Origin: a virus
Lineage: Duplodnaviria > Caudoviricetes
Virus record (IMG/VR): IMGVR_UViG_3300021255_005861
Span: 121,667-185,666 of that record
Strand: one strand, 5' to 3'
Length of the DNA stretch: 64,000 nucleotides
Part shown: positions 6,331 through 37,865 of the stretch, one piece after another
Position numbering within the stretch: the stretch's first letter is position 1
How the letters are laid out: each line of letters opens with the position of its first letter
Position numbers and translations under genes: made by a program
Notes under the pieces: generated by a model
What the model was told of the DNA's origin: nothing
Databases searched by the model: none
The model's input: the letters and a program-made list of their open reading frames with translations, nothing else

Positions 6331-6977
6331 TGAACTTCCTCCAGATATCGCTCACTACCAAGTGCAACCTGGCCTGCCCAACGTGCCCGATGGCGGCGTA
6401 CCGGAATACGGATAACGCCCCGTTCGTGCTTACTAATGGCAGGCTCCTCCCGTGGATCCGCAAGTACCTCTCCCCACACTCCTGGGTCATCGAACTCACG
6501 GGGGGAGAGCCTGCCCTTTATGACGGCATCTCCGACCTGCTATATGCACTGGACTCGGAAGGTTACAGGGGGCTCGTCAAGACCAACGGCCTGCTCCCCA
6601 TACCCAAGACCGACAACTTCATACGCGTTGCCGCCTTCCACAACCTTGACCGGTTCCCCGTCTACTACGACAAGATACTTATTGTGGACAAGCTGGAACG
6701 CGAGGCCAAGGAGGCGTACTGCAAGGAGCACGGCATAGACTACCGCGTCATCGGGTTCAACAAGGAGAACCCGGACGGAGCGACGCACGGCTTCGACAAG
6801 GTGGCCTACATCGACCCGCACGGACACCAGGTCCCCTGCCCGTCCTGCCCCATCCAGTACGAAAAACAACCCGACCGCTACACGATCGAGTATCAACGGT
6901 TGAAGCCGGGTATGTGCTGCGGGCACTGCAAGGCGGCGATAGACGCATGGCGCTTCCTGCCCGACTCGTGGAATTGA
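6327..6977 (+). CDS. Radical SAM protein
   Basis: CNLACPTC (CxxxCxxC), TGGEP, TNG motifs; extra C-terminal cysteines. Confidence 0.85.
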   Translation: MMNFLQISLTTKCNLACPTCPMAAYRNTDNAPFVLTNGRLLPWIRKYLSPHSWVIELTGGEPALYDGISDLLYALDSEGYRGLVKTNGLLPIPKTDNFIRVAAFHNLDRFPVYYDKILIVDKLEREAKEAYCKEHGIDYRVIGFNKENPDGATHGFDKVAYIDPHGHQVPCPSCPIQYEKQPDRYTIEYQRLKPGMCCGHCKAAIDAWRFLPDSWN

Positions 6978-8330
6978 ACTATCCCCCACGCTAAAGACAT
7001 GCGGGATTCCCTAACTTACACAGAAACATTTCCTGCGATGGTTTCGGGCATTCTCGGTGTAATCCGAGCATTTTTAAGGACTTCGGTAGGTTCCCTTCCT
7101 AATGTCCGTTTGACTCCTAGATACAGAATATTACGTGCAGCGTTCACATCCCTATCGTGCTGTACGTTGCATACGGGGCATACCCACTGATTCACACCTA
7201 ACACGACAGCCGTATTTATATTCCCGCACACGTTACAGGTCTTGCTTGTGTATTGTGCAGGCACCTTTACAAGGTTCGTCTTATAGGACAGGTATTGCCG
7301 AAGCAACCCAAATCCTTGGTCGCCAACAGTCTTACCGTGTTCTAGCTCCGAAGCCATCTTGGATAGATCGATGTCCTCCATGAACACGTATTGGTATTTG
7401 TTGGCTAACTCCCGGCTAACCTTGTGAAGCCAATCCTTACGTTGGTTGGCTACTTTTTCGTATAGCCTCGCCACTTTAAGTCTGGCTTTTTGATATCGGT
7501 GGGATTGTTCGTTCTTTCCATTGACGAACCGGTTGGACTGGATTTGCTGGTATTTCGCTAGCTGCTTTTCCTTACGCTTCAAGAAACGGGGGCACTTGAT
7601 TTTCGTGCCGTCGCTCAAAGTGAGGAAAGAATCGGAGTTGCAGTTCCAATCTATGCCTACGGCTTTTCCATTTTGTATTTTCTTAATATCTTTAGTTTCT
7701 ACACAAATCTTGACATACCATTTTCCACTTGCAGACCGCTTAAAGGTAATGTTCTTCCATCTACCCTTGCAGAACTGCGAAGACGCATGGAGGGGTATAT
7801 AGCCAAGCCTACGAGATATGAACAGCCCTTTTGAATTGATGTGGGCTACATTTCTTTGCAATGCATACCTAAACGATGCCTTGGAGTTCTTTTTGCTCTT
7901 GAAGGTTGGTGGTTGCATAGGCTTTCCCTTGCGGGTACCCTTGAGAGATGCAAAGAAATTCGTATATGCTCCACGGACATCGCTCCATGTTTGTCCAAGT
8001 GGCACGGAATCCACTTCCTTAATCCACTCCAATGCTTCGGGCTTGAACTTCATGAACGTAGGCTTGTAGCCCTCAATAGGCATACTGTGGTCTTTGTTCT
8101 TGTTCTCCACCACCAGGTTGTAATACAGACGACAAAGACCAAGTGTCTTGTTGAAGATAGACACTTGTTCCTTGGTTGGATAGATTCTGTATTCGTAAGC
8201 TTTGTTCATAAGTTTATGTAAACTTTGACTATACTTTAAATATGCATAAGGTTTTTAGAATTTGCAATAGGTTTATTCAAAAATCTGGGCGATTCATTTT
8301 ACAGGCACTAAAAATTTGTGAGTATTCTCG
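6974..8330 (-). mobile_element. IS200/IS605-family (IS1341-like, tnpB-only) element
   Basis: AT-richer segment; subterminal hairpins at ~6983-7010 and ~8290-8330; right end finishes TTCAA on the minus strand; ends approximate. Confidence 0.75.
7016..8209 (-). CDS. tnpB: RNA-guided endonuclease TnpB
   Basis: AYEYRIYPT HTH start, RuvC D/E/D (GIDWN, MEDID, DRDVNAA), CxxC...CxxC zinc ribbon. Confidence 0.95.
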   Translation of the reverse strand: MNKAYEYRIYPTKEQVSIFNKTLGLCRLYYNLVVENKNKDHSMPIEGYKPTFMKFKPEALEWIKEVDSVPLGQTWSDVRGAYTNFFASLKGTRKGKPMQPPTFKSKKNSKASFRYALQRNVAHINSKGLFISRRLGYIPLHASSQFCKGRWKNITFKRSASGKWYVKICVETKDIKKIQNGKAVGIDWNCNSDSFLTLSDGTKIKCPRFLKRKEKQLAKYQQIQSNRFVNGKNEQSHRYQKARLKVARLYEKVANQRKDWLHKVSRELANKYQYVFMEDIDLSKMASELEHGKTVGDQGFGLLRQYLSYKTNLVKVPAQYTSKTCNVCGNINTAVVLGVNQWVCPVCNVQHDRDVNAARNILYLGVKRTLGREPTEVLKNARITPRMPETIAGNVSV

Positions 8331-8513
8331 TTACATTTCTATAACTTCTTTATATTCAATAATAAAGTTCTGATGCCACCACGAGTTAATCGTGAGCGCG
8401 TTGTTGCACTTGCCGTTGAGCCACAGGAAGTACGGGCCCTTGTCGGCGTGTTCCAACCCGTGCGTTGCGGTGAAGCCTATTCTATGTACGTTGCTCAATC
8501 CTAGATTTTTCAT
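8331..8513 (-). CDS. Stand-alone methyltransferase TRD-like mini-protein (cassette Y, 60 aa)
   Basis: MKNLG...GKCNNALTI...NFIIEYKE; ATGA overlap with upstream mini-ORF; same pattern as cassettes at 16889-18170. Confidence 0.6.
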   Translation of the reverse strand: MKNLGLSNVHRIGFTATHGLEHADKGPYFLWLNGKCNNALTINSWWHQNFIIEYKEVIEM

Positions 8514-8671
8514 CGCAAGTCCTTGTACAAAATGACCTTGATCTTGTTTCCGCTGCCCTCGCTGGATTTCAGTGCGTAGCACTTGCCCGCCGGATCCACG
8601 ACGTTCTGCTCAAAGTGCCAACCGTAGGGCGTCATGTCCTTCAGCGGCGTAATGACGTTGCCGCCATTCAT
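8510..8671 (-). CDS. Stand-alone methyltransferase TRD-like mini-protein (cassette X, 53 aa)
   Basis: Manual translation MNGGNVITPLKDMTPYGWHFEQNVVDPAGKCYALKSSEGSGNKIKVILYKDLR; ATGA overlap with the helicase stop. Confidence 0.65.
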   Translation of the reverse strand: MNGGNVITPLKDMTPYGWHFEQNVVDPAGKCYALKSSEGSGNKIKVILYKDLR

Positions 8672-10128
8672 CGCCTCCTCCTCGGGCTGCCCCTACGCGG
8701 TGCCCTCTCATCAGATTCCTCGTCGTGGTATTCCTCTTCCTGACCCATGTCCACTCTCGACAGCAACTTGAAGTCGAGGTACGGCCTCCCGATGGCGAGG
8801 CACGACGTGCATACCACCTGGTCTATGCAGGGAGCGCCGTCACGCGAGGTTTCGCAGGCCACTCGGCATATCCCCCTGGCCTTCTCCTCCATGGAGTGGT
8901 TCAGCGTTATCAGCTTGGTCACGTGAGCCACCTTTCGGATATCTTCGGCCACGTCCGCCGCTCCGACGTCCTTGTTGCCGCCCACGGTCTGCCTGCCGGT
9001 TTGCGATGCGGTCACCAGTACGCCCTTGCGCTCCGACGCCAGACCTCTCAAACCCTTCCACGTGGTGTTGATGCGGTCGCGTTCCGAGTCTCCTCGCCCG
9101 AGGTCCATGATATCCGCGTAGTCCACGACTATCACCTCGGGTACGAAGTTCTCGTACACCTCCATGTCCTTGAGTTCCGCCTGCAACCCGCGCACCGTGA
9201 GCGAGTTCGTCGGGTAGTTCCTCAGTTCCAGCCTTCCCCCGCGGCTCATCTTCCGCAGGTCCCGCATGTCCTTCGCTATGCGCTCGTCGGACACGTCCAC
9301 GCGACGGGTCGTGGCCACCCCGTCCACGATACGGAACACGCCCTCGTCGCACTCCTGGAACTCCGGCCACGGGGCCTCCTCCCCGTACCTGCTCCTGCCC
9401 TGCAGCATCTGCCAGAACCTGCGCACCATCTGCTTCTTGGACATCTCCAGGGAAACGAACAGCACCGCCTTGCCCTGCAAGGCCGCCTGCATCGCGATGA
9501 CCATGAGCCACCACGTCTTGCTCGACTTGGGGGGACCGATGACCGCGACGAAGTCCTCGCGGATGAACGGGCCGATGACCCTGCCGAGTTCCCCCGGCAT
9601 CTCGAACACAACGTCCTCCTCGTCGTCGAAGGCGGAGGACACCGCCTCCACGTCGCCGAACATGTCCACGACCTCGGTCTTGCGGATCTCGGGCTTCACG
9701 AAGTCCGCTATAGCGTGGAAGCCCCCGCTCACGTCGTTGGCCTGCACCGCACGTGATAGCCGGTCGGAGAGAACGGCGAGCGACCGCCCCTGGAAGAACT
9801 TCAGCGCCATCTCCTCGGCCATGCCCTCGTTCGTGGGAAGCCACTCGTCGGAGCAGGACTGGAGGAAGGTGTAGACCATCTCCGCGTCCGCGTCCTTGAG
9901 CTCGGACGCCCGCTGGCGGTACAAGTCGCTTATCGCGCCCTTCGGGGCCTCTCCGCACTTGTCGTAGAAGTCCCATACCCACGTGGACACTATCTTTCCC
10001 AGCGTGGTCTCGAACAGGGTTGGGTCGCCCACCTTCCGGCACCTACCGAGGAGCGTGGTGGACATGATTAGGTTTGAAAGTACTCTGCGTTCAACGGATA
10101 TGTCTATCTTCTCGCGGCGTAGGGGCAT
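8668..10128 (-). CDS. DnaB-like replicative helicase
   Basis: Variant Walker A GPPKSSKT, FVSLEM, IVVDYAD, TASQ motifs; start taken at MPLRREK. Confidence 0.85.
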   Translation of the reverse strand: MPLRREKIDISVERRVLSNLIMSTTLLGRCRKVGDPTLFETTLGKIVSTWVWDFYDKCGEAPKGAISDLYRQRASELKDADAEMVYTFLQSCSDEWLPTNEGMAEEMALKFFQGRSLAVLSDRLSRAVQANDVSGGFHAIADFVKPEIRKTEVVDMFGDVEAVSSAFDDEEDVVFEMPGELGRVIGPFIREDFVAVIGPPKSSKTWWLMVIAMQAALQGKAVLFVSLEMSKKQMVRRFWQMLQGRSRYGEEAPWPEFQECDEGVFRIVDGVATTRRVDVSDERIAKDMRDLRKMSRGGRLELRNYPTNSLTVRGLQAELKDMEVYENFVPEVIVVDYADIMDLGRGDSERDRINTTWKGLRGLASERKGVLVTASQTGRQTVGGNKDVGAADVAEDIRKVAHVTKLITLNHSMEEKARGICRVACETSRDGAPCIDQVVCTSCLAIGRPYLDFKLLSRVDMGQEEEYHDEESDERAPRRGSPRRRR

Positions 10129-10190
10129 GCGTAAAAACTCTGGGGTGGCGATGTAAAACTTGAAATGGGCACGCCCGAGAGCGTGCCCTT

Positions 10191-10214
10191 CCAATATAGC
10201 AAGGCGGCAAAATC
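10191..10214 (-). promoter_or_regulatory. Promoter-like motif TTTTGCC-N5-GCTATA
   Basis: Minus strand GATTTTGCCGCCTTGCTATATTGG upstream of the helicase. Confidence 0.7.
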
Positions 10215-10216
10215 AG

Positions 10217-10369
10217 TTATTTCTTACTTGACGTAAGATTCTCTATTGGGGTAGTTTTCCCGAAGTGGTGCGTGTCGTAGTAGCGCAGTTCCTCCTTGGA
10301 CAGCGTGTTGGGGACGATTTTGTGTCCTGCCGCGAGCAGGCTCTTTTCTAGTTCTTTCGCATTCAGCAT
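10217..10369 (-). CDS. Small hypothetical protein (50 aa)
   Basis: MLNAKELEKS...; fills the gap between the two helicases. Confidence 0.45.
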   Translation of the reverse strand: MLNAKELEKSLLAAGHKIVPNTLSKEELRYYDTHHFGKTTPIENLTSSKK

Positions 10370-10372
10370 AGT

Positions 10373-12532
10373 CTATCCTTTAGGGACGCGGATTCCCTTC
10401 CTCTCCATTATCTCGGTCAATAGGTCTATATCCGCGGCTTCCTTGCCGTCCACGAGCCCGTCTAGCATCTTGGCACGGTTGTCCAGGATTTCCATAGCCT
10501 CCATGTCGATAGTCCCGTTGGCAACGAGATAGTATGCCGTTACGGGCTTCGTCTGCCCTGAACGAGATAGGCGATCCGTTGCCTGCCGGTGGAAGTTCGG
10601 CGTGTGGGCGAACTCGGCGAAGGCACAGTGGCTGCATACATGCTGAAGTCCGTCGATACCGACACCCCCGCTCTGGATGTTGGCCACGAGCAGGCGGCAG
10701 TCCTCGTCCTTGATGAACATGTCCTTGGCCGTCTCCCTCTCGCTGGCGGTCATTCCCCCGTATATCTTGGCGGGCTTCCACGGTTTCATCTGCGAGCAGA
10801 GCAGATCCACCACGTCACGATGCCACGCAAAGAGCAATAGCTTCTCCCCGGACTGGAGGAAGCAGTCCACCCAGTCCTCCAAAGCCTTCTCTTTGAGCGT
10901 GAAGGCGGTGTGCAGTAGCCCCGCGATGCGGTTCCTCATGCCCGAGAGTTCCGTGCCCCCGCCGAATACGGAGGCCTCCTCCTCGGCATACGCCTTCATG
11001 GCATCGGGATCGGTCTCTAGCGGCACCACCTCTATCGTCTTGGGGGGCAGATCCTTCATCACGTCCTGCTTCGTGCGCCTCAGCATGCAGTTCACGATGG
11101 CGCGGTGGAGCTGGTCGGCGTTGGTCACCCCGTTGAAGGTCATGCCGTACCCGTTGTTCTTCGGGTCGCAGTAGGTGTATAGATACTTGTAGTAGTCGGG
11201 GAATACGTCCGGCATCATTATGTTGAGGCACGGCCAGAACTGGGCGGGGCGGGACATCGCGGGGGTGCCGCTCATCGCTATCACCTCACGTGTAATCTTC
11301 GCCAGGGCCATGAACGCCATCGAGCGTATGGACTTGGGGTTGCCTATCGCCTGCACCTCGTCCCCTACCAGCAACATTAAATTTAGCCTAGTCAGCTGGC
11401 CGTCTGCAATAAATCTCAACTTGCCGTCCTTGGTCTTCTCGGTATGTCCTACCCAGTCGGCAAGGATGTCCCAGTTGATTATGTACGTCTTGTCCGGGGA
11501 CAGCTCGTGTGGGGTCTTGCCGTACAGCACCTCGGGCTTCGGGAACGTCCCCTCCACCTTCGAGAGCCACGCTTCGTATGCGTTCTTCCACTGCAGTTTC
11601 GTCGGGGCGTTGACCACGTAGAGGGCGGGGAAGGACTGGGCGTAGACCATCCACGCGAGCGCCTCCACGGTCTTGCCGCAGTTGTGCACCACGATCCGGT
11701 TCGCCACGAAGTTGGCGTGCTCCAGCACCTTCACGTCGTAGGTCATCCGCATCCCGCAGGGATACACGGAGTCAACCCTCGCGTAGTCCTCCTCCCCGTC
11801 TATGCGAACCCTGCACCCCAAGAGCTTCTCCGCCTCCACGTACCCGTAGTCAGTAAGAACTCGGTGGTCGTGCGTGGCTATCAGGAACTTGCCATTATCC
11901 AGGGTGACGTGTACGCACCCCTTGATGCCGCTCTCTATGACATCTACAATTTCTCCGTATCCGAGAGTGCCGTCGGCGAGGACGCACTTGATTTTCCACT
12001 GTTTGTCCTCGGTGTACTTGCGGTGCAGGGTTTCCAGGGACATCCCTACTACCTTCTCGCCCGTGTCGATATGCACGAGCATGTCGCCCGAGATGCATCC
12101 CATCTCGTCGCCGAGCAGCACCCTTCCGTGCCTTACCTGGCAGAACTTGAGGAAATCCACTTGATACGGGCGCAGGCCGGGGAGCAGCGTAGCCCCCGGT
12201 ATTAGCCCCATCCGGTCTATCTTCGCCCGTTGCTCTTCCAACGGGTCGGGAAGGTCGGCCTTCTCCACGGGGGGATCTGGCGCGGGCCATCCCGACATGA
12301 ACAGCCACTCCCGCGTCTTGTCGTCCCACGGGAGTTCCCACAGCTTGGTCAGCGTGTTGTAGTTGCGGACGGGCAATGCCTTTATGGCGGCGAGAATGAG
12401 TTTCCACGTGTCCCTGTCGGGGCAATTCCACCCTACCTCCACCTTCTCGTTTCCGGGGAGCATACGGGCGGTATACCTGCATCCGGGTACAGGCGATATC
12501 GGGGGCGGGAATCGGGTTTTCTTCGGGTACAT
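10373..12532 (-). CDS. SNF2-family helicase with mini-intein
   Basis: LRPYQ, GDEMG|CGKT Walker A, DEVQ, SGTP, LRRTK, QATDRLSRSGQ. Confidence 0.9.
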   Translation of the reverse strand: MYPKKTRFPPPISPVPGCRYTARMLPGNEKVEVGWNCPDRDTWKLILAAIKALPVRNYNTLTKLWELPWDDKTREWLFMSGWPAPDPPVEKADLPDPLEEQRAKIDRMGLIPGATLLPGLRPYQVDFLKFCQVRHGRVLLGDEMGCISGDMLVHIDTGEKVVGMSLETLHRKYTEDKQWKIKCVLADGTLGYGEIVDVIESGIKGCVHVTLDNGKFLIATHDHRVLTDYGYVEAEKLLGCRVRIDGEEDYARVDSVYPCGMRMTYDVKVLEHANFVANRIVVHNCGKTVEALAWMVYAQSFPALYVVNAPTKLQWKNAYEAWLSKVEGTFPKPEVLYGKTPHELSPDKTYIINWDILADWVGHTEKTKDGKLRFIADGQLTRLNLMLLVGDEVQAIGNPKSIRSMAFMALAKITREVIAMSGTPAMSRPAQFWPCLNIMMPDVFPDYYKYLYTYCDPKNNGYGMTFNGVTNADQLHRAIVNCMLRRTKQDVMKDLPPKTIEVVPLETDPDAMKAYAEEEASVFGGGTELSGMRNRIAGLLHTAFTLKEKALEDWVDCFLQSGEKLLLFAWHRDVVDLLCSQMKPWKPAKIYGGMTASERETAKDMFIKDEDCRLLVANIQSGGVGIDGLQHVCSHCAFAEFAHTPNFHRQATDRLSRSGQTKPVTAYYLVANGTIDMEAMEILDNRAKMLDGLVDGKEAADIDLLTEIMERKGIRVPKG
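11681..12097 (-). mobile_element. Mini-intein (139 aa) in the SNF2 Walker A motif
   Basis: Starts CISGD, block B THDH, ends VVHN followed by Cys; no endonuclease. Confidence 0.9.
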
Positions 12533-12534
12533 AA

Positions 12535-13392
12535 TTAGACTATAGCAGGTTCTAGCATCTTATGCGGTTCTACTACGGGAAGTTCTAATATTTCTTCGCC
12601 GATTTTAACATAATTCACGTCTAGTTTACGGGTTTTCAGTATTTCTACAGCCTTTTCCAAAGATTCCTTCCACGCAGGGAAAAGTTCTCCAAGTCCGAAT
12701 TCCATATAGAGTTCATCAAGGTCCATAACTACACCGATAGCCCAGTTTACATCTGCTTCCGTGAAATCTTCGTGTAGTGCCTTATCCCGGAATTTGTCAT
12801 ATCGGGGATTCATTGAAACAATACGGTCATATTCTTCTTTGGATTTAAACCCGAAGATGCATTTTTCCACGAGGTCCTTGTTTTCCCCTAGTTCTCGCAA
12901 GTAATGAAAACCATCATCATTCAATCCTATAATTTTTGTACCTAATAGTTCTTTTGCGATGATATTAGGTATAGGATAACCGCCATATTTCTTAAAGTAA
13001 TGCTCGATGATACCGCTAACTTCCGCCCAGTACCACTTGTCGAAATTGGCAATATCGTGTTTTACGATTTCAATAACGCCCTCACGATACTGCGGATTAC
13101 TACGGATTCCCGTAATACCGGTCATCTTCTTACCCGGCAACCGGCCTTCATAGATAGCAAGGGCCGCACGTTCTCCATCCGTCAAGGCGAACCTTACTTC
13201 GGATAAGTTCTTCAGAAGCGTAGAGTCTTTGGAGGGTCCTACCCAACCATCAAGACTAGATGCCTTGTATCCTTCATCTAAAGTCTTTCTAATATACCCG
13301 ATTAACGGAGCAATCTCATCCTTTTCTGTAATGAACTGCAACTGGATGTTATTCTCGTTAATATGCTCATTAACTTTTATTTTTAGCGACAT
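12535..13392 (-). CDS. Hypothetical protein (AT-rich)
   Basis: 285 aa ORF with lower GC than neighbours. Confidence 0.65.
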   Translation of the reverse strand: MSLKIKVNEHINENNIQLQFITEKDEIAPLIGYIRKTLDEGYKASSLDGWVGPSKDSTLLKNLSEVRFALTDGERAALAIYEGRLPGKKMTGITGIRSNPQYREGVIEIVKHDIANFDKWYWAEVSGIIEHYFKKYGGYPIPNIIAKELLGTKIIGLNDDGFHYLRELGENKDLVEKCIFGFKSKEEYDRIVSMNPRYDKFRDKALHEDFTEADVNWAIGVVMDLDELYMEFGLGELFPAWKESLEKAVEILKTRKLDVNYVKIGEEILELPVVEPHKMLEPAIV

Positions 13393-14642: not shown

Positions 14643-15017
14643 ATGGAAAAGAAAAGAAAGACTGCAGGCCCGAGGCATCCGGGCAAGGACAAGTACCCGG
14701 TGCATCACGAGGCCGAGACTATAACCATTCCACGCGCCGAATACGACGCGATGGTGGAGGAACTGCGGGACAGGCGCATGCGTGCCAACCGCAGGTGGAT
14801 ATCCACCGATACGAGGCTCCCGGATCCCGAGGAGTACGTAATCGTGTACGGGTCGGACTGGTGGAATGGTGGCAGTTACGCGATGCTGAAGGTAATGAAG
14901 GAACGTGGCCCGTTCGGTGAGATTCAGTGGTCGGACGGGAACGGTCCCGTGTCCGTTGAGGACATCTCGTACTGGACGCATTTTCCCGCAGCCCCGCGAG
15001 GTAGAGATGGAAATTAA
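14643..15017 (+). CDS. DUF551-like phage protein
   Basis: WISTDTRLP...YWTHFP pattern. Confidence 0.55.
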   Translation: MEKKRKTAGPRHPGKDKYPVHHEAETITIPRAEYDAMVEELRDRRMRANRRWISTDTRLPDPEEYVIVYGSDWWNGGSYAMLKVMKERGPFGEIQWSDGNGPVSVEDISYWTHFPAAPRGRDGN

Positions 15018-15732
15018 GGGAAAGGTACACTGCTTATTCGAACAATCTGGGGTATTCAAGAACCAGTTCAAGGAACTCGGGTACGAGGCTTTCGACTACG
15101 ACATCCAAAACCACTTCCACGAGACCGACCACGTGGTGGATCTGTTCAAGGCGATAGAGGACGCCTACGACGGGAAGCCGAGCCTCTTCGACGACATCAC
15201 GCCCGACGACCTCATCATGGCGTTCTTCCCTTGCATCTACTTCTCGTGCATGAGCCAGATGCTCATAAGTTACACGCACCGCAACTACACGAATTACTCG
15301 CCAAAGGAGCGCTTCGACGCCATCCTCCAGCGTTCGGCGAACCGCGAGCTGTTCTTCTCCCGCGCCGTTAAGATGCTGGCCGTGGCGAAGATCCGGGGCC
15401 TTAGGATAATCATGGAGAACCCGTGGAGCGAGCAGACGTTTCTCAAGCAGAACTTCCCGTTCAACCCCAGCGTCGTGGACATGAACCGGACGCTCCGCGG
15501 CGACTACTACGTGAAGCCTACCGCCTACTGGTTCATCAACTGCGAGCCAACGAACGGGCAGACGCTACAGCCACGGAAGCCGGGGAAGAATATCTGCCAG
15601 GTAGCCCCCAACGGGATGCCCGGAATCTGTAACGAGGAACGCAGCCTCATACACCCGGACTACGCCCGCAACTTCATCTGCGACTTCGTGCTCGGGAAAC
15701 GGCAGGAATTTGGGCAACTCTCGCTCTTCTAA
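15007..15732 (+). CDS. Compact C5-cytosine methyltransferase-like protein
   Basis: CLFEQSG (motif I-like), FFPC (IV), MENP (VI), KPT (VIII-like); ends QLSLF. Confidence 0.65.
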   Translation: MEIKGKVHCLFEQSGVFKNQFKELGYEAFDYDIQNHFHETDHVVDLFKAIEDAYDGKPSLFDDITPDDLIMAFFPCIYFSCMSQMLISYTHRNYTNYSPKERFDAILQRSANRELFFSRAVKMLAVAKIRGLRIIMENPWSEQTFLKQNFPFNPSVVDMNRTLRGDYYVKPTAYWFINCEPTNGQTLQPRKPGKNICQVAPNGMPGICNEERSLIHPDYARNFICDFVLGKRQEFGQLSLF

Positions 15733-15786: not shown

Positions 15787-16896
15787 ATGGGAATACGAGT
15801 ATTGAGCCTTTTCGACGGCATGGGTTGCGGCAGGATAGCCCTGGAGGAACTCGGAGTCAAGGTGGACACGTACTACGCGTCGGAGGTAGACAAGAACGCC
15901 ATCGCAATGGAAACTCTAAACTTCCCGGACACGGTCTGCCTCGGCGACGTGACTAAGGTGGACGCCCGCAAGCTCGGGCACATCGACCTGCTTATCGGCG
16001 GGTCGCCGTGCTTCACTAAGGGACACAAGGTACTTACCGAGAACGGGGAGAAGAACATCGAGGACATCGTGCTCGGCGACAGGGTGTTGACACACACGGG
16101 TTCGTATATGCCCGTAATCGATGTAGGAAGCAAGTTCTCGGACGACCTTTACGAGATGGTTCTCGCTGACGGGACTACGTATCACGTGACAGGAAACCAT
16201 CCGTTCTATGCTACTACCGATGGGAAGGTTTTTTCCTGGGTGGCCTGTTCGGAACTTACCCCGGAACATGGGATACTGAAGGTAGACCGAGTCACGGTCA
16301 CGCAGTTCAAGGGCAGGGATAGGATACCGGGCGATACCGTGTACAACATGACTGTGGACGTGGACCACAGCTACTCGGTTAATAATTACTTTGTACATAA
16401 TTGCACGAACTTCAGTTTCGCCGGTCGCCGCAACGGCATGAATACTACCACGAACGAAGAAATATACTCGCTCGATCGCTATCTTGAACTCAAGCGCGAT
16501 GGCTTCCAGTTTGACGGCGAGTCCTACCTGTTCTGGGAGTACATGCGCATCCTCGGGGAACTCCGCGAGACTAACCCGGACGTGTTCTTCTTTTTGGAGA
16601 ACGTTGAGATGGGTGAGAAGTGGGAATCCGTGCTGACGAAGGCGATCGGTATTCCCGGCGTGCACGTCAATTCCGCCCTCGTGTCCGCGCAGAACCGCCG
16701 TCGCATCTATTGGACTAATATCCGTACGAAGAATGGGGGACTGCTCGGGTTCGGGTGGCAGGTACCCGACATCCCGCAGCCCGAGGACAAGGGCATCATG
16801 CTCTCGGACGTGCTCGACGACGTAGTGGACAGGAAGTACTATCTCAAGGACGAGGTGGTGGACAAGCTGCTCGCCAACGGGGTGAAGGGTGCGTAA
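15787..16896 (+). CDS. Split C5-cytosine methyltransferase, N-terminal catalytic part (motifs I-VIII), intein-containing
   Basis: LFDGMG (I), GGSP|C (IV), LENV (VI), QNRRRIYW (VIII); ends before TRD and motifs IX/X. Confidence 0.9.
   Translation: MGIRVLSLFDGMGCGRIALEELGVKVDTYYASEVDKNAIAMETLNFPDTVCLGDVTKVDARKLGHIDLLIGGSPCFTKGHKVLTENGEKNIEDIVLGDRVLTHTGSYMPVIDVGSKFSDDLYEMVLADGTTYHVTGNHPFYATTDGKVFSWVACSELTPEHGILKVDRVTVTQFKGRDRIPGDTVYNMTVDVDHSYSVNNYFVHNCTNFSFAGRRNGMNTTTNEEIYSLDRYLELKRDGFQFDGESYLFWEYMRILGELRETNPDVFFFLENVEMGEKWESVLTKAIGIPGVHVNSALVSAQNRRRIYWTNIRTKNGGLLGFGWQVPDIPQPEDKGIMLSDVLDDVVDRKYYLKDEVVDKLLANGVKGA
16009..16401 (+). mobile_element. Mini-intein (131 aa) in the catalytic PC motif
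   Basis: CFTKG...TGNHPF...VHN followed by the catalytic Cys. Confidence 0.9.
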
Positions 16897-17080
16897 CAAG
16901 GCCTTATGTATGCCCTGCCTGCGCTACGGTGTGGTGGTACCCGAGTCGCAGAAAGTTCCTTGTCTTATATCTACGTACCAGCAGGACAGGTTCTACGACC
17001 CCGCGGGCGGGTTGCTCCCTGCGCTGGCTAAAAACCTTGAAGGATTTTTGATTTTGGTCTATGAAGAAAGTGCTCGTTAA
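16889..17080 (+). CDS. TRD-like mini-protein, cassette A (63 aa)
   Basis: KVPCL...YQQDRFYDPAG...FLILVYEE; GTG start overlaps the catalytic gene end. Confidence 0.65.
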   Translation: MRNKALCMPCLRYGVVVPESQKVPCLISTYQQDRFYDPAGGLLPALAKNLEGFLILVYEESAR

Positions 17081-17222
17081 TCCGCTCTTCAACCACCCGG
17101 TACACGGATGGCTCACGCTGTTGCAGGCCGAGGATAAGTCGTTCTGCCTGTGCGCCAAGTACGCGCATCAGCCACGGTTCGACATCAAGACGTACATTAT
17201 GGATTATGAGGATGTGGCATGA
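17061..17222 (+). CDS. TRD-like mini-protein, cassette B (53 aa)
   Basis: Manual translation MKKVLVNPLF...DKSFCLCAKY...TYIMDYEDVA. Confidence 0.65.
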   Translation: MKKVLVNPLFNHPVHGWLTLLQAEDKSFCLCAKYAHQPRFDIKTYIMDYEDVA

Positions 17223-17410
17223 TTAGGTGCACGTGGAAACAGCAACGCAGCGAGTTCGGGAAGCTCCACCGGCACGAATACGAAAACCTGCACTCGCGGG
17301 AATACGGCGGTAGGCAGGCCATGAAGGAAAAGGCGCTCGTGTTCGACAAGTGCGGACCGCTTACGCTCGCCCTCGGCGACAACGTCATCTTGGAACTGGA
17401 CGAGGTGTAG
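17219..17410 (+). CDS. TRD-like mini-protein, cassette C (63 aa)
   Basis: RSEFGKLHRHEYE...KCGPLTL...DNVILE; ATGA overlap, GAGG RBS. Confidence 0.7.
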   Translation: MIRCTWKQQRSEFGKLHRHEYENLHSREYGGRQAMKEKALVFDKCGPLTLALGDNVILELDEV

Positions 17411-17412
17411 CC

Positions 17413-17601
17413 ATGTCCGTTAATGTTTTGCGCATCCGAAGAAGCGACTACGGGAAAGAGCACCGCAAGGCGTACGAGTACGGGCATTCCCGCGAATACG
17501 GCGGGATGCAGTCCATGGTGGAACGCTATCCTAGTACCGACGGCAAGAGCGGCCCGCTAACGACCGTGCTCAAGGACAACTTAGTGATCCATTATGAGTA
17601 G
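17413..17601 (+). CDS. TRD-like mini-protein, cassette D (62 aa)
   Basis: RSDYGKEHRKAYE...DGKSGPLTTVLKDNLVIHYE; paralog of cassette C; GAGG RBS. Confidence 0.7.
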   Translation: MSVNVLRIRRSDYGKEHRKAYEYGHSREYGGMQSMVERYPSTDGKSGPLTTVLKDNLVIHYE

Positions 17602-17614
17602 TGCTCGTATATGA

Positions 17615-17634
17615 TTTTGCCCACCCGCTATAAT
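17615..17634 (+). promoter_or_regulatory. Internal promoter-like motif within the cassette array
   Basis: TTTTGCCCACCCGCTATAAT. Confidence 0.65.
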
Positions 17635-17641
17635 GTACGAT

Positions 17642-17802
17642 ATGGATAAGATGCCGGTTCTAGTTGGATACAAGTGTGGAGTGACCCCCCCCCATGCAAC
17701 GGGAAGGCGCCTACACTCACGACGGAACTGGCGCACCGGACGAACTCGTACGGCCTGCCCCACGTTTTGATATTTGAGATATTTAATGGAAAAGAACCTT
17801 AG
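17642..17802 (+). pseudogene. TRD-like cassette E, frameshifted at a C9 tract (candidate phase-variable, OFF)
   Basis: MDKMPVLVGYKCGVT-[C9 17685-17693]; second frame PCNGKAPTLTTELAH...PHVLIFEI; C7 or C10 restores frame. Confidence 0.65.
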
Positions 17803-17834
17803 AAACCCCCCCCCTCCCCCGGAAAGGAAGGTAC

Positions 17835-18008
17835 ATGAAGACTAGCATGCATTTCAGCAAGAGTTACTTCGGCGTGGACACTTGCACGGATCCTGCGTCA
17901 TCAAAAAGTTGCTGTCTTACGAGCGGGGACTACCCTACGGTACATGCGGGTGGAGTTGAAGGGTTCTGCAAAAGGACATACTTGTTGGACATTGAGGTAC
18001 TTGAATGA
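17835..18008 (+). CDS. TRD-like mini-protein, cassette G (57 aa)
   Basis: Manual translation MKTSMHF...SKSCCLTSG...TYLLDIEVLE; preceded by C9-T-C5 tract and GGAAGG. Confidence 0.6.
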   Translation: MKTSMHFSKSYFGVDTCTDPASSKSCCLTSGDYPTVHAGGVEGFCKRTYLLDIEVLE

Positions 18009-18170
18009 GGGTCGCATGTAATCCTACATGGAAGAATGGAATACTCATACCCCCCCCAGAGGAGGAACAAGAGTACTTGCATACAGGCGTTCCTGTGCAA
18101 GTGGTTCGTGCCAAGTAAGACTCATGACCTGACGTTCGTGATGGACTATGAAATTTTAGAAAAGGAATAA
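18005..18170 (+). pseudogene. TRD-like cassette H, frameshifted at a C8 tract (candidate phase-variable, OFF)
   Basis: MRVACNPTWKNGILI-[C8 18050-18057]; second frame QRRNKSTCIQAFLCK...TFVMDYEILEKE; C7 or C10 restores frame. Confidence 0.65.
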
Positions 18171-18173
18171 CCG

Positions 18174-18983
18174 ATGGCATTTTTCGACATGGAAGAGATA
18201 AAGCCCAAGGAGGAACCGTCCTCCGACGGGAGAATTATAACTCTCAACGGCAAGAAGGTGCACGTCCTCGGTATCCGCAGGCTCACTCCCGCCGAGTGCG
18301 CCCGCCTGCAGACCATACCCACGTGGTACGCATGGTACGGCAACTACGCGGATGAACTCGTGGACGGGGTGTCCACGAAGGGGTATAACGTGGCCCTCGG
18401 GCTGCTCTCGTCGGACGTCGTCACCAAGAACGTGTCCGAGGTGCTCTCCGTCATCCCCGTGGTGGAATCCTCGTGCACGCAGGTCAAGGCGGAGAAGCTC
18501 TCCGTGTCCTTCGATACGGACATCCCGGATTCTAGCGCCCGCTCGGTGTTGTTCGTCAAGGGCAAGGACGAGACGTCGCTCCCCGCCGGGTTTACCCGTG
18601 AGGTGGACATGGGAGGGTATCAAGTGTCGGTTATGCCTTCCGGCGTGCTGTCGGGCAGGTTGCCGGAGTCTACCGACGAGGTGGGTTTCATCAAGGTGCT
18701 CAAGGGCTTGCACGACGAGAGCCCCGTTACGGCGGTGTCGTACTTGATAGCGTGGTCTCTGTGCCGCGGTATCCTCGCCACGATGCACGGGGTGTCCCTC
18801 CGCGTGGACGGGACATGCACGGTCGCGGCAGGCAGGCTGACGTGGGAACTAACGTCGCTCCGGATTGGGCAGGTCAAGCAGATAAGCGACTCCAGCATAT
18901 ACAAGGCTCTCGGCAACGGGTGGACGGTGGATGTCGTCAAGCACTTCTTCTCGTTCCTCCCGAAGGAATGGCGTGCGGCGTGA
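18174..18983 (+). CDS. Split C5-cytosine methyltransferase, C-terminal part (motifs IX-X) with ~180 aa insertion
   Basis: IRRLTPAECARLQTIP (IX) and YKALGNGWTVDVV (X); own RBS and ATG. Confidence 0.85.
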   Translation: MAFFDMEEIKPKEEPSSDGRIITLNGKKVHVLGIRRLTPAECARLQTIPTWYAWYGNYADELVDGVSTKGYNVALGLLSSDVVTKNVSEVLSVIPVVESSCTQVKAEKLSVSFDTDIPDSSARSVLFVKGKDETSLPAGFTREVDMGGYQVSVMPSGVLSGRLPESTDEVGFIKVLKGLHDESPVTAVSYLIAWSLCRGILATMHGVSLRVDGTCTVAAGRLTWELTSLRIGQVKQISDSSIYKALGNGWTVDVVKHFFSFLPKEWRAA

Positions 18984-19649
18984 AGGACTGGACGGGAAAT
19001 CGCAACAGCACGGTAGCGCTACTAGGTAGCACCCGCGACACGGAAAACGTGCGTGAGGACAACGACTTCTACGCCACGCACCCGCTTGCTACGGAACTGT
19101 TGCTTGAACTGGAGGAGCTCTCGCACGATGTGTGGGAACCCTGCTGCGGGCAGGGTCATATCGGGAAGGTACTCGCGGCACGGGGCTTCAACGTGAAGGC
19201 TACAGATCTTGTCTACCGCGGATATGGTAGGGGGGGGGGAGGACTTCCTGCAGTGCACTACCCCGTTCGACGGGGATATCGTCACGAACCCCCCGTACAT
19301 GTACGCCCCAGAGTGCGTCATCAAGGCATTGGAGCTCATCCCCGAAGGCCGCAAGGTCTGCATGTTCCTCAAGCTGCAGTTCCTGGAAGGACTTTCCCAC
19401 TATGAACTTTTCAAGGCATACCCGCCACGGACTATTTACGTGGCCGTACGCCGCATGCAGTGCAGCAAGGGCGGGAAGTTCCTCGACGCCTCCATGGTGT
19501 GCTATTGCTGGTTTGTATGGATTAAGGGGTTTAAAGGTACACCCGAATTGAAATGGTTCAACTACGAGGCCCGCGAGACCGCATATCCCGAACTGCTGCA
19601 CATCGCCAACCCCGAAGATACTCCAGGCACATACCCGAAGTTCTTCTAG
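18980..19649 (+). pseudogene. Adenine (amino) DNA methyltransferase, frameshifted at a G10 tract
   Basis: DFYATHP, WEPCCGQG in one frame, TNPPY in another; G10 at 19230-19239; G9 gives GYGRGGEDFL. Confidence 0.8.
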
Positions 19650-35924: not shown

Positions 35925-37865
35925 TTTAGACAGAATCATTATAGCACTACAACAATATAAAAATATCAAAAAATACTTGACTTTCAAATAGTTTTTGTAT
36001 ATATTTATCACTGTGAAAGCAAAAGAAGTATTAAAGATTTTACAAGTATCCCGTCAAACTTTAACGACTTATGTTAAAAACGGCTCTCTTATAGTCCAAA
36101 AGAAGTCTAACGGTTATTATGACTATGACGAGGACAGCGTACTAAAGAAGGCGGGTATCACCCCGGAACGAAAGGTTGTAGTCTATGCACGGGTATCAAC
36201 GCAAAAGCAGAAAGCGGATCTTCAAAACCAGATAGACACAATTACCAAGTATGCAAACAATAACGGGTATTCCGTTTCCAAGGTATATTCGGATATCGCT
36301 AGCGGCATTTCCTATGACCGCGGACAATTTATTGAATTACTGAATGATATAATTGCACGTAAGATAAAGACCGTATTCGTAGAGAACAAGGATAGGCTTA
36401 CCCGTGTATCGTTCAATATGTGGAAGGACTTGTTCAAGCAGTTCGGATGCGACCTTGTAGCGATAAACGATGTCGTGAACCCTAAGACGGAAGAAGCCGA
36501 GATATTTTCGGACATTATCTCCCTCTTGCATTGCTTTGCCATGAAGATGTATTCCCAGCGTAGAAAGAACAAGCTGCGCATAGTCAAGGAAGACCTAGAA
36601 AATGAGATTAGTCTATAGTTTCAACTGCTCCGAACACATGGAGGAACTGCTTAGGTTGTGCAGGGTGTCGAAAGACCTGTACAACCAGGCTCTCTATACG
36701 TGTATGCAGGCTATGAAACAGGACGAACCCCAGTTCCTTAACTACTATGACCTAAACAAGATCTTGCAGAACACGTATAATCTTGAAGGGGCTATCAACT
36801 ATCGCCTGTTAAAAGCGCAGGTATCGCAGCAGACGCTCAAGCTGGTAGCAAATGCTATGAAGTCCTATTTCAGGGCTATAATGGACTACAAGGAGCATCC
36901 GGACAAGTATACGGGGCAACCAAAGATGCCTAACTATCTTCCCCGTAATGGATACTTCCTGCTCACGTATCCCAACCAGAGCTGCTCCATACGGAACGGA
37001 TACATCGTGTTGTCCAAGAACCTTAAACTTCGTATCCCGCAATTCCATAAGTATGAGGGAGCATTATCTTTGTTCCAGCAGGTTCGCATTATCCCGAAGA
37101 AAACCCACATGAAGGTGGAGATAGTCTATGAGCGTGAGGAAAGGGTTTCAACGTTGGATGCAAACAGATATGCTAGCATCGACCTCGGGCTGAATAACCT
37201 GGTTACCATGGTAACGGATTTTTCCGAGCCAGTTATCTATAACGGAAAGCCTATAAAGGCACTAAACAGACAATTTAACAAGTCCTTGGCAAAATACAAG
37301 TCATTAGTGGAGAAGAACAATGGCAAGAAGAGTAGTAAGCGGATAGACCGCATCTATACTAAAAGAAATAACCATATGGACGACCTTATGCATAAGGTGT
37401 CGCGACATATCGTGGATACGCTAGAACGGAACAATGTAGGAACTCTTGTCTGTGGACGCAACAAGGGATGGAAAGACTCCATTGACTTGGGCAGGAGGAA
37501 CAACCAGCAGTTCGTTCAGATACCCCACGAGAGACTCATATCCATGCTGCGGTACAAGTGCGAGATGTCCGGAATACGGCTGATAGAGAACGAGGAATCC
37601 TACACGAGCAAGTGCGATGCCCTTGCCCTGGAGCCCGTCTGCAAGCACGAAACCTATATGGGCAAACGTGTCCGCAGGGGGATGTTCCAGAGCAGTACCG
37701 GTAGGATATTGAATGCGGATGTGAACGGGGCGTTGAACATCTTGAGAAAAGTAGTCGGCGATTCCTGCGTGAGCGGGATAGCCGATAGTGGCCGCTTGTT
37801 CCGGCCTAGGAAGTTGGACAATCCATATTGTTTGAGTTCCGGAATAGTTTTTAACAATTTTAATG
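35925..37865 (+). mobile_element. IS607-family element (tnpA + tnpB)
   Basis: AT-rich segment carrying a serine recombinase and TnpB; ends approximate. Confidence 0.85.
36013..36618 (+). CDS. tnpA: IS607 serine recombinase
   Basis: N-terminal HTH, YARVST, DIASG, KDRLTR. Confidence 0.9.
   Translation: MKAKEVLKILQVSRQTLTTYVKNGSLIVQKKSNGYYDYDEDSVLKKAGITPERKVVVYARVSTQKQKADLQNQIDTITKYANNNGYSVSKVYSDIASGISYDRGQFIELLNDIIARKIKTVFVENKDRLTRVSFNMWKDLFKQFGCDLVAINDVVNPKTEEAEIFSDIISLLHCFAMKMYSQRRKNKLRIVKEDLENEISL

Follow-up and report, generated by a model that had tools for sequence, protein, structure and literature searches.

Free-standing TRD modules behind a phage replicative helicase suggest a C5 methyltransferase that draws its specificity from separate mini-proteins

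Two mini-genes that follow the replicative helicase gene of a large phage, ORF1 (8510-8671, minus strand, 53 aa) and ORF2 (8331-8513, minus strand, 60 aa from its ATG), were recognised as free-standing target-recognition-domain (TRD) modules of C5 cytosine methyltransferases, ORF2 being of a second and rarer type. From their homology to modules within complete enzymes, this identity is close to certain. The sequence analysed, here called the window, is the final 64 kb of a 185,666-bp virus record, and it also encodes a C5 methyltransferase that is split into an N half and a C half, both lacking a TRD. Taken together, these features suggest that the methylase draws its sequence specificity from separate plug-in mini-proteins, and the products of ORF1 and ORF2 are probably specificity subunits of this kind, acting in trans.

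Gene neighbourhood

The original prediction described two ATGA-coupled mini-ORFs of 53 and 60 aa after a DnaB-like gene, and the coordinates and both overlaps were verified, as were the peptide strings quoted for them. The minus-strand operon begins with a SNF2 helicase gene that carries a mini-intein (10373-12532), followed by a 50-aa ORF, the gene for the DnaB-like replicative helicase (8668-10194; Pfam DnaB_C, 1e-11, and AAA_25, 1.4e-6), ORF1, and ORF2. One ATGA, at 8668-8671, is common to the helicase stop and the ORF1 start, and a second, at 8510-8513, to the ORF1 stop and the ORF2 start, with GGAGG and AAGGA at Shine-Dalgarno distance 5' of the ORF1 and ORF2 starts, respectively. A scan for promoters and terminators gave no excess over the shuffled expectation and none between the helicase gene and the two mini-genes, and an Rfam search over 6500-10400 returned no meaningful match. 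Among cultured phages, no match to the locus was found by blastn, and the helicase protein shares no more than 28% identity with theirs; a 99% identical protein is present in a related phage, L002. At the head of the same operon stands an AT-rich ORF (12535-13392, minus strand; GC 0.38-0.43) of 285 aa, with an N-terminus of the type M-x-x-K-I-K-V-N-E.

Identity of ORF1 and ORF2

The description of the mini-ORFs as TRD-like cassettes is supported, as each is homologous to modules from the variable region of C5 methyltransferases, that is, to the segment between motifs VIII and IX, and in fused homologues the module stands immediately N-terminal of motif IX (RRLTP.EC..LQG/T). Neither ORF1 nor ORF2 has a match in Pfam or PHROGs at E up to 1; these libraries do not model single TRDs.

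Free-standing homologues of ORF1 fall into nine clusters (51-90 aa, 66-96% identical, E 1e-28 to 4e-16), among which the core TPLK..YGWHFEQNV..G..YALKSSEGSGN.IKV is almost invariant. A profile built from ORF1 and its free-standing orthologues found matches in 312 longer proteins, the best 120 of which are nearly all C5 methyltransferases of family PF00145, and it aligned with more than 100 fused PF00145 proteins at E 6e-17 to 1e-11 and 58-71% identity. In the metagenomic protein P0022, the match to ORF1 covers residues 366-418 (BLASTP, 3e-19) and is the last of several tandem modules, with motif IX directly after it, and a second metagenomic enzyme, P0035, carries five or six modules as well as an intein. 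The AlphaFold2 model of P0022 resembles M.HhaI (Foldseek E 4e-25, TM 0.76 on the target), and within its variable region only the last, ORF1-like module is modelled at moderate confidence (block means 60-81). In cultured phages, the ORF1 module was seen only within annotated cytosine methyltransferases of Staphylococcus and Lactococcus phages, while a search of the ORF1 profile against PDB sequences gave chance-level matches only (E at least 0.37). Among the enzymes that contain modules of these types, no characterised one was identified.

The ORF2 type, with the core IGFTATHGLE..GP.F.W.NGKCNNALTINSWWHQNFI, is rare, with eight representatives at E < 1e-10 among 1.84 billion proteins. Its own profile retrieved eight proteins at E 5e-27 to 2e-20, six of which contain the PF00145 motifs IX-X. 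In P0134-P0140 (E 1e-23 to 2e-20), an ORF2-type module is fused to a half carrying motifs IX-X, with motif IX within about 25 residues after the module in P0135 and P0139, and the profile also matched P0133, a fusion of two cassettes of two types. The ORF2 type occurs, too, inside TRD mini-gene arrays of other phages. A local search with ORF2 among the 120 fused methyltransferases that ORF1 had retrieved gave no match; ORF2 is a different and rarer type, retrieved only by its own profile search.

The window holds seven further TRD mini-ORFs, A-G, in an array on the plus strand (16889-18170), and these are of types other than ORF1 and ORF2. The original prediction had seen the same signature in the two mini-ORFs as in the array, but this has no statistical support: when all cassettes were compared by BLASTP with the six-frame ORFs of the entire record, neither ORF1 nor ORF2 matched any of A-G, and a hidden Markov model of the seven array cassettes, a check that had been proposed with all nine, retrieved the array itself and neither ORF1 nor ORF2 (best match outside the array, E 1.1). 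The link runs instead through homologues elsewhere. The DPAG shared with cassette A consists of four residues that fall within the generic TRD motif. What all cassettes have in common is the general TRD frame together with a C-terminal tail, a hydrophobic strand and then acidic residues, which was found in 21 of 31 cassettes and in 9 of 417 background small ORFs. By these comparisons, ORF1 and ORF2 are TRD types different from A-G. Each is present as a single copy in the record, and a six-frame scan of all 186 kb found no cassette beyond the array and this pair.

Hybrid origin of ORF2 and the adjoining IS element

Comparison with L002 revealed that ORF2 is a hybrid, formed by an in-frame deletion, of the cassettes that stand second and third in that phage. 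Its first nine codons (8487-8513) come from a third cassette type, which is whole in L002 (7681-7860) and in another relative, L005, and a deletion of about 148 bp fuses them, in frame, to the body of the cassette that follows. A similar deletion, independent-looking, is seen in the relative L006.

An element of the IS200/IS605 type (6978-8330, minus strand) adjoins the ORF2 stop, lying between ORF2 and a convergent radical-SAM gene; its boundaries are approximate because no second copy exists in the genome. Its tnpB gene (7016-8209) has the helix-turn-helix, OrfB_IS605 and zinc-ribbon TNB domains of such elements (Pfam OrfB_IS605, 1e-21; Cas12f1-like_TNB, 1e-17; HTH_OrfB_IS605, 6e-12). The element is a neighbour and not a part of the methylase, and its GC content of 0.34-0.47 departs from the value of about 0.6 in the flanks. 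Three more tnpB-like genes occur in the same phage record, numbered there (G000) as 111479-112600, 117950-119071 and 36660-37562, and are 23-27% identical to the tnpB beside ORF2. In a variant of the L003 type of phage, a tnpB lies inside the TRD array.

The IS element occupies the same ORF2 junction in L005, a distant relative (window 6978-8352 and L005 11080-12189 are 81% identical over 1214 nt), and is missing from L006 and from L002, the latter a close relative. The body of ORF2 is nearer to L002 and L006 (66/73 and 67/73 nt), whereas its last 22 nt match L005 (20/22) and not L002 (6/19), and therefore the cassette tail travelled with the IS element. As far as the alignments indicate, this tail would derive either from co-conversion during a homing-like spread of the element or from the IS end itself. 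With a deletion hybrid for a body and a last 22 nt that came with or beside an IS element, the locus is evidently in flux.

Such rearrangements raise the question of whether the mini-ORFs are a recombination reservoir, keeping TRD DNA for shuffling, fusing or swapping into methyltransferase genes instead of encoding working proteins. Hybrids and fusions do exist, including ORF2 itself, a hybrid cassette in the relative L011 (7774-7899), P0133, and the fusions of cassette and C half in P0134-P0140. Silent cassettes, however, need no start codon, ribosome-binding site, stop overlap or selection at the protein level, all of which are conserved here, and this genome has no fused recipient gene with a TRD. 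Storage as the sole purpose is therefore highly unlikely, although exchange of cassette DNA can coexist with action in trans.

Arrangement and conservation in relatives

Free-standing orthologues of ORF1 and ORF2 were found in related phages of 180-215 kb. L006, L007 and L008 (a 182-kb contig and shorter ones) have the layout of the window, with a divergent methylase locus, the helicase gene, ORF1 and ORF2, while L002, with about 95% nucleotide identity in the helicase gene, lacks the IS element and has three cassettes after the helicase. In L011, at least seven cassettes follow the helicase directly, the ORF1 type first, so that the ORF1 type occupies the position after the helicase in the window, L002, L006-L008 and L011. 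L003 (208 kb) and L009 (40 kb) carry it inside a long array that extends from the N half to the C half, downstream of the helicase and on the same strand, and L005 (215 kb) has it between the SNF2 and helicase genes, with another cassette after the helicase; the ORF2 type and a partner are the last members of the L005 array, before the same tnpB element. From these placements, it follows that the same TRD types occur once per genome, in differing places. The suggestion that cassettes can disperse around the genome holds in the narrow sense that the spots vary between relatives, but the 186-kb record has only two such places, and in all relatives the cassettes stay within the replication module of SNF2, helicase and methylase genes. 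A six-frame reading of L003 (4060-6000) showed roughly 17 TRD-like cassettes, many of them uncalled by the gene caller, crowded into all three frames of the stretch from the N half to the C half, one overlapping the end of the N half. In L011, a gene of the N6_N4_Mtase family lies between the SNF2 and helicase genes.

Pairwise dN/dS was 0.065-0.12 among the free-standing ORF1 orthologues and 0.075-0.26 among those of ORF2, synonymous sites being saturated in the distant pairs of both. Judged by these ratios (0.07-0.26 overall), mini-genes of the two types are under purifying selection, and on sequence grounds their status as coding sequences is far beyond chance.

The layouts of L011, L003 and L005, in which the same types are array members or follow the helicase in number, make the pair in the window look like the stump of a longer array. 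ORF1 and ORF2 might then be stranded leftovers of a rearranged TRD array, once part of a fused or contiguous methyltransferase locus and no longer used, an origin with which the hybrid nature of ORF2 and the IS element adjoining it would agree. The low dN/dS values, obtained with saturated synonymous sites, speak against disuse, and so does the fact that the window, L002 and L006-L008 have all kept the start codons, the complete reading frames and the coupling by ATGA or TAATG. Moreover, each type is single-copy in the genome and so is not redundant with the array. We regard it as unlikely that the pair are relics, and prefer to see them as genes in use.

The split methyltransferase and its array

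The methyltransferase genes lie on the plus strand. The N half (15787-16896; Pfam DNA_methylase, 2.4e-22, and Hint_2, 1.4e-7) covers motifs I-VIII, with motifs I, VI and VIII present and motif IV (PC) split by a mini-intein, the +1 Cys of which serves as the catalytic Cys; the intein occupies the same site in P0035 and in L005, while L003 and L009 carry an intein-free allele (the L003 N half is 78% identical to that of the window). The C half (18174-18983) holds motifs IX and X, and its residues 27-57 align to positions 268-298 of the DNA_methylase profile at 21.0 bits, just below the cut-off of 22 bits; it could also be aligned with the L003 C half and with P0134-P0140. The N half stops at ..KYYLKDE..LLANG.., the segment that precedes the variable region in fused relatives, and the C half begins about 30 residues before motif IX. 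The catalytic motifs are intact, and the variable region is absent from both halves. Between its motifs IX and X, the C half has about 170 extra residues without a Pfam match, an insertion found at the same place in P0138 and not in L003, L009 or P0135.

Each TRD, like the N half and the C half, is an ORF in its own right with a separate start. Within the array, a match at E 3e-11 links cassette D to the KDN-type TRDs of fused enzymes, and cassettes A-D and F gave no match in PHROGs at E up to 1. Cassette E is frame-split at a run of nine C (17685-17693) and cassette G at a run of eight (18050-18057), and the G-type orthologue of L005 (7751-7915) is intact. These splits could represent a switch, decay, or a homopolymer sequencing error, and some decay or switching may therefore occur in the array.

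Just 5' of the N half lies a gene for a 241-aa protein (15007-15732, plus strand) that is conserved in L003, L006 and L009. It shows the C5-core-like motifs FEQSG, FFPCIYFS and ENP and has no Pfam match; its AlphaFold2 model has a pLDDT of 43.6, too low for use, and an atlas comparison gave unnamed viral clusters and a weak lead to PF00145. It could be a second core using the same TRD mini-proteins. A short ORF 3' of the C half (19209-19649, plus strand) contains the NPPY motif typical of amino (N6/N4) DNA methyltransferases.

Proposed assembly in trans

ORF1 and ORF2 are on the opposite strand to the methylase, 7.1 kb from the N half and with the catalytic genes 7-10 kb away, which bears out the earlier statement that they cannot be joined to the methyltransferase by frameshifting. 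As they also belong to another operon and vary in position between relatives, read-through and bypassing are excluded likewise, and splicing was rejected on strand and distance. Trans-splicing of the intein type was also considered and rejected, as the cassettes have no intein halves.

In the arrangement that we propose, the N and C halves would assemble as they do in two-subunit C5 methyltransferases, and one TRD mini-protein of about 55 residues at a time would dock beside motif IX, completing the small DNA-reading domain. Docking would probably be via the conserved C-terminal hydrophobic strand of the mini-protein and the acidic residues after it. Each mini-protein would give the core one target sequence, and the nine mini-genes, two here and seven in the array, would thereby provide multispecific self-methylation against host restriction enzymes. 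By their translational coupling to the replicative helicase, ORF1 and ORF2 would be made together with the replication proteins.

Several lines of evidence are consistent with this. In other genomes, the module is fused into full-length enzymes with several TRDs and into proteins of module plus C half, and such fusions connect the module and both halves with a single enzyme (Rosetta-stone evidence). A complex prediction was made from the intein-free N half, the C half and the ORF1-type cassette of L003. The cassette scored 0.53 against the two halves (runs of 0.63, 0.35 and 0.53; best control 0.01), a result rated weak: 58 of 80 solved complexes attain the pass mark, as do 2 of 110 mismatched pairs, and the passes at a score of 0.60 or under include only 7 of the 80 solved complexes and both of those mismatched pairs. 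At least 18% of contacts are common to the runs, and the cassette has a pLDDT of 41-46, leaving its own fold uncertain. Resemblance to solved single-chain C5 methyltransferases may account for the pass, and a TRD of 53 residues may be unable to fold alone.

The mini-proteins might alternatively be made and serve some other role, as competitive regulators of the methylase or as decoys for host methyltransferase or restriction components or for specific DNA sites. A role of this kind during replication would explain why the coupling, which is conserved in at least four phage genomes, is to the helicase and not to the methylase halves, and the complex prediction, being weak, leaves room for it. 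Yet the same types are found inside the N-to-C arrays of L003 and L009 and fused into active-looking enzymes elsewhere, and the halves without mini-proteins would have no recognition domain at all. A purely regulatory or decoy function is accordingly quite unlikely in our estimate. Action in trans, which the original prediction had put forward, remains the best explanation for halves that lack a TRD, for purifying selection on the mini-genes, for the fusions elsewhere and for the weak complex prediction; the translation of ORF1 and ORF2, their assembly in trans with the halves and their effect on specificity are what we infer from this combination. The broader proposal of a three-piece C5 methyltransferase, in which the halves are joined by any one mini-subunit of about 55 residues encoded anywhere in the genome, seems to us a little better than evenly balanced. 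If it is true, C5 specificity becomes a freely exchangeable part no larger than one TRD, with its own expression and its own evolution, and ORF1 and ORF2 would be the first examples beyond any explanation by joining in cis.

Comparison with known systems

Enzymes of the SPR type combine one catalytic core with several short, modular and independently acting TRDs, all arranged one after another between motifs VIII and IX of a single chain. The fused metagenomic proteins P0022 and P0035 have exactly that layout and include an ORF1-type module. In the system described here, by contrast, every TRD has a gene to itself, two further genes encode the core, and two of the TRD genes belong to a different operon on the opposite strand; a single polypeptide with tandem TRDs and motifs I-X is not present. 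The multispecific C5 methyltransferases of the Bacillus phages SPR, phi3T, rho11s and H2 (Trautner and co-workers) are cited in PMC2790894 and PMC12707154.

Two-subunit C5 methyltransferases such as M.AquI and M.EcoHK31I, as well as fragment complementation of M.SssI, M.BspRI and others, are established, with non-covalent assembly and a break in or near the variable region (PMC3404938). As in M.AquI, motifs I-VIII and IX-X are here on two polypeptides. In those enzymes, however, the variable region is attached to one or both subunits, while here neither half has it, and a third, small subunit would thus be needed.

The working logic is that of HsdS, in that specificity could be changed without touching the catalytic genes. 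In Type I systems (HsdS), and in some of Type IIB/IIG, a separate protein supplies the TRDs to a methylase core; HsdS carries two TRDs in a protein of roughly 400 residues and serves adenine methylases. There is no relation in sequence or fold, and here a C5 enzyme would be served by single modules, each of about 55 residues.

A literature search found multispecific and split C5 methyltransferases and no free-standing C5 TRD genes, and to our knowledge no three-piece C5 methyltransferase with a TRD-only subunit has been described. What is added here, by homology and conservation, is that two cassettes lying apart from the array are genuine TRDs, that they are conserved and under selection, and that their position is free, which excludes any joining in cis. 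Should they act in trans, they would represent a new way of building C5 specificity, with a minimal module of about 55 residues plugged into a shared core, and would explain how large phages achieve a broad and quickly changeable anti-restriction methylation at very low coding cost. They would also mark the natural boundaries of a self-sufficient TRD and, for engineering, offer a modular scaffold for targeted cytosine methylation.
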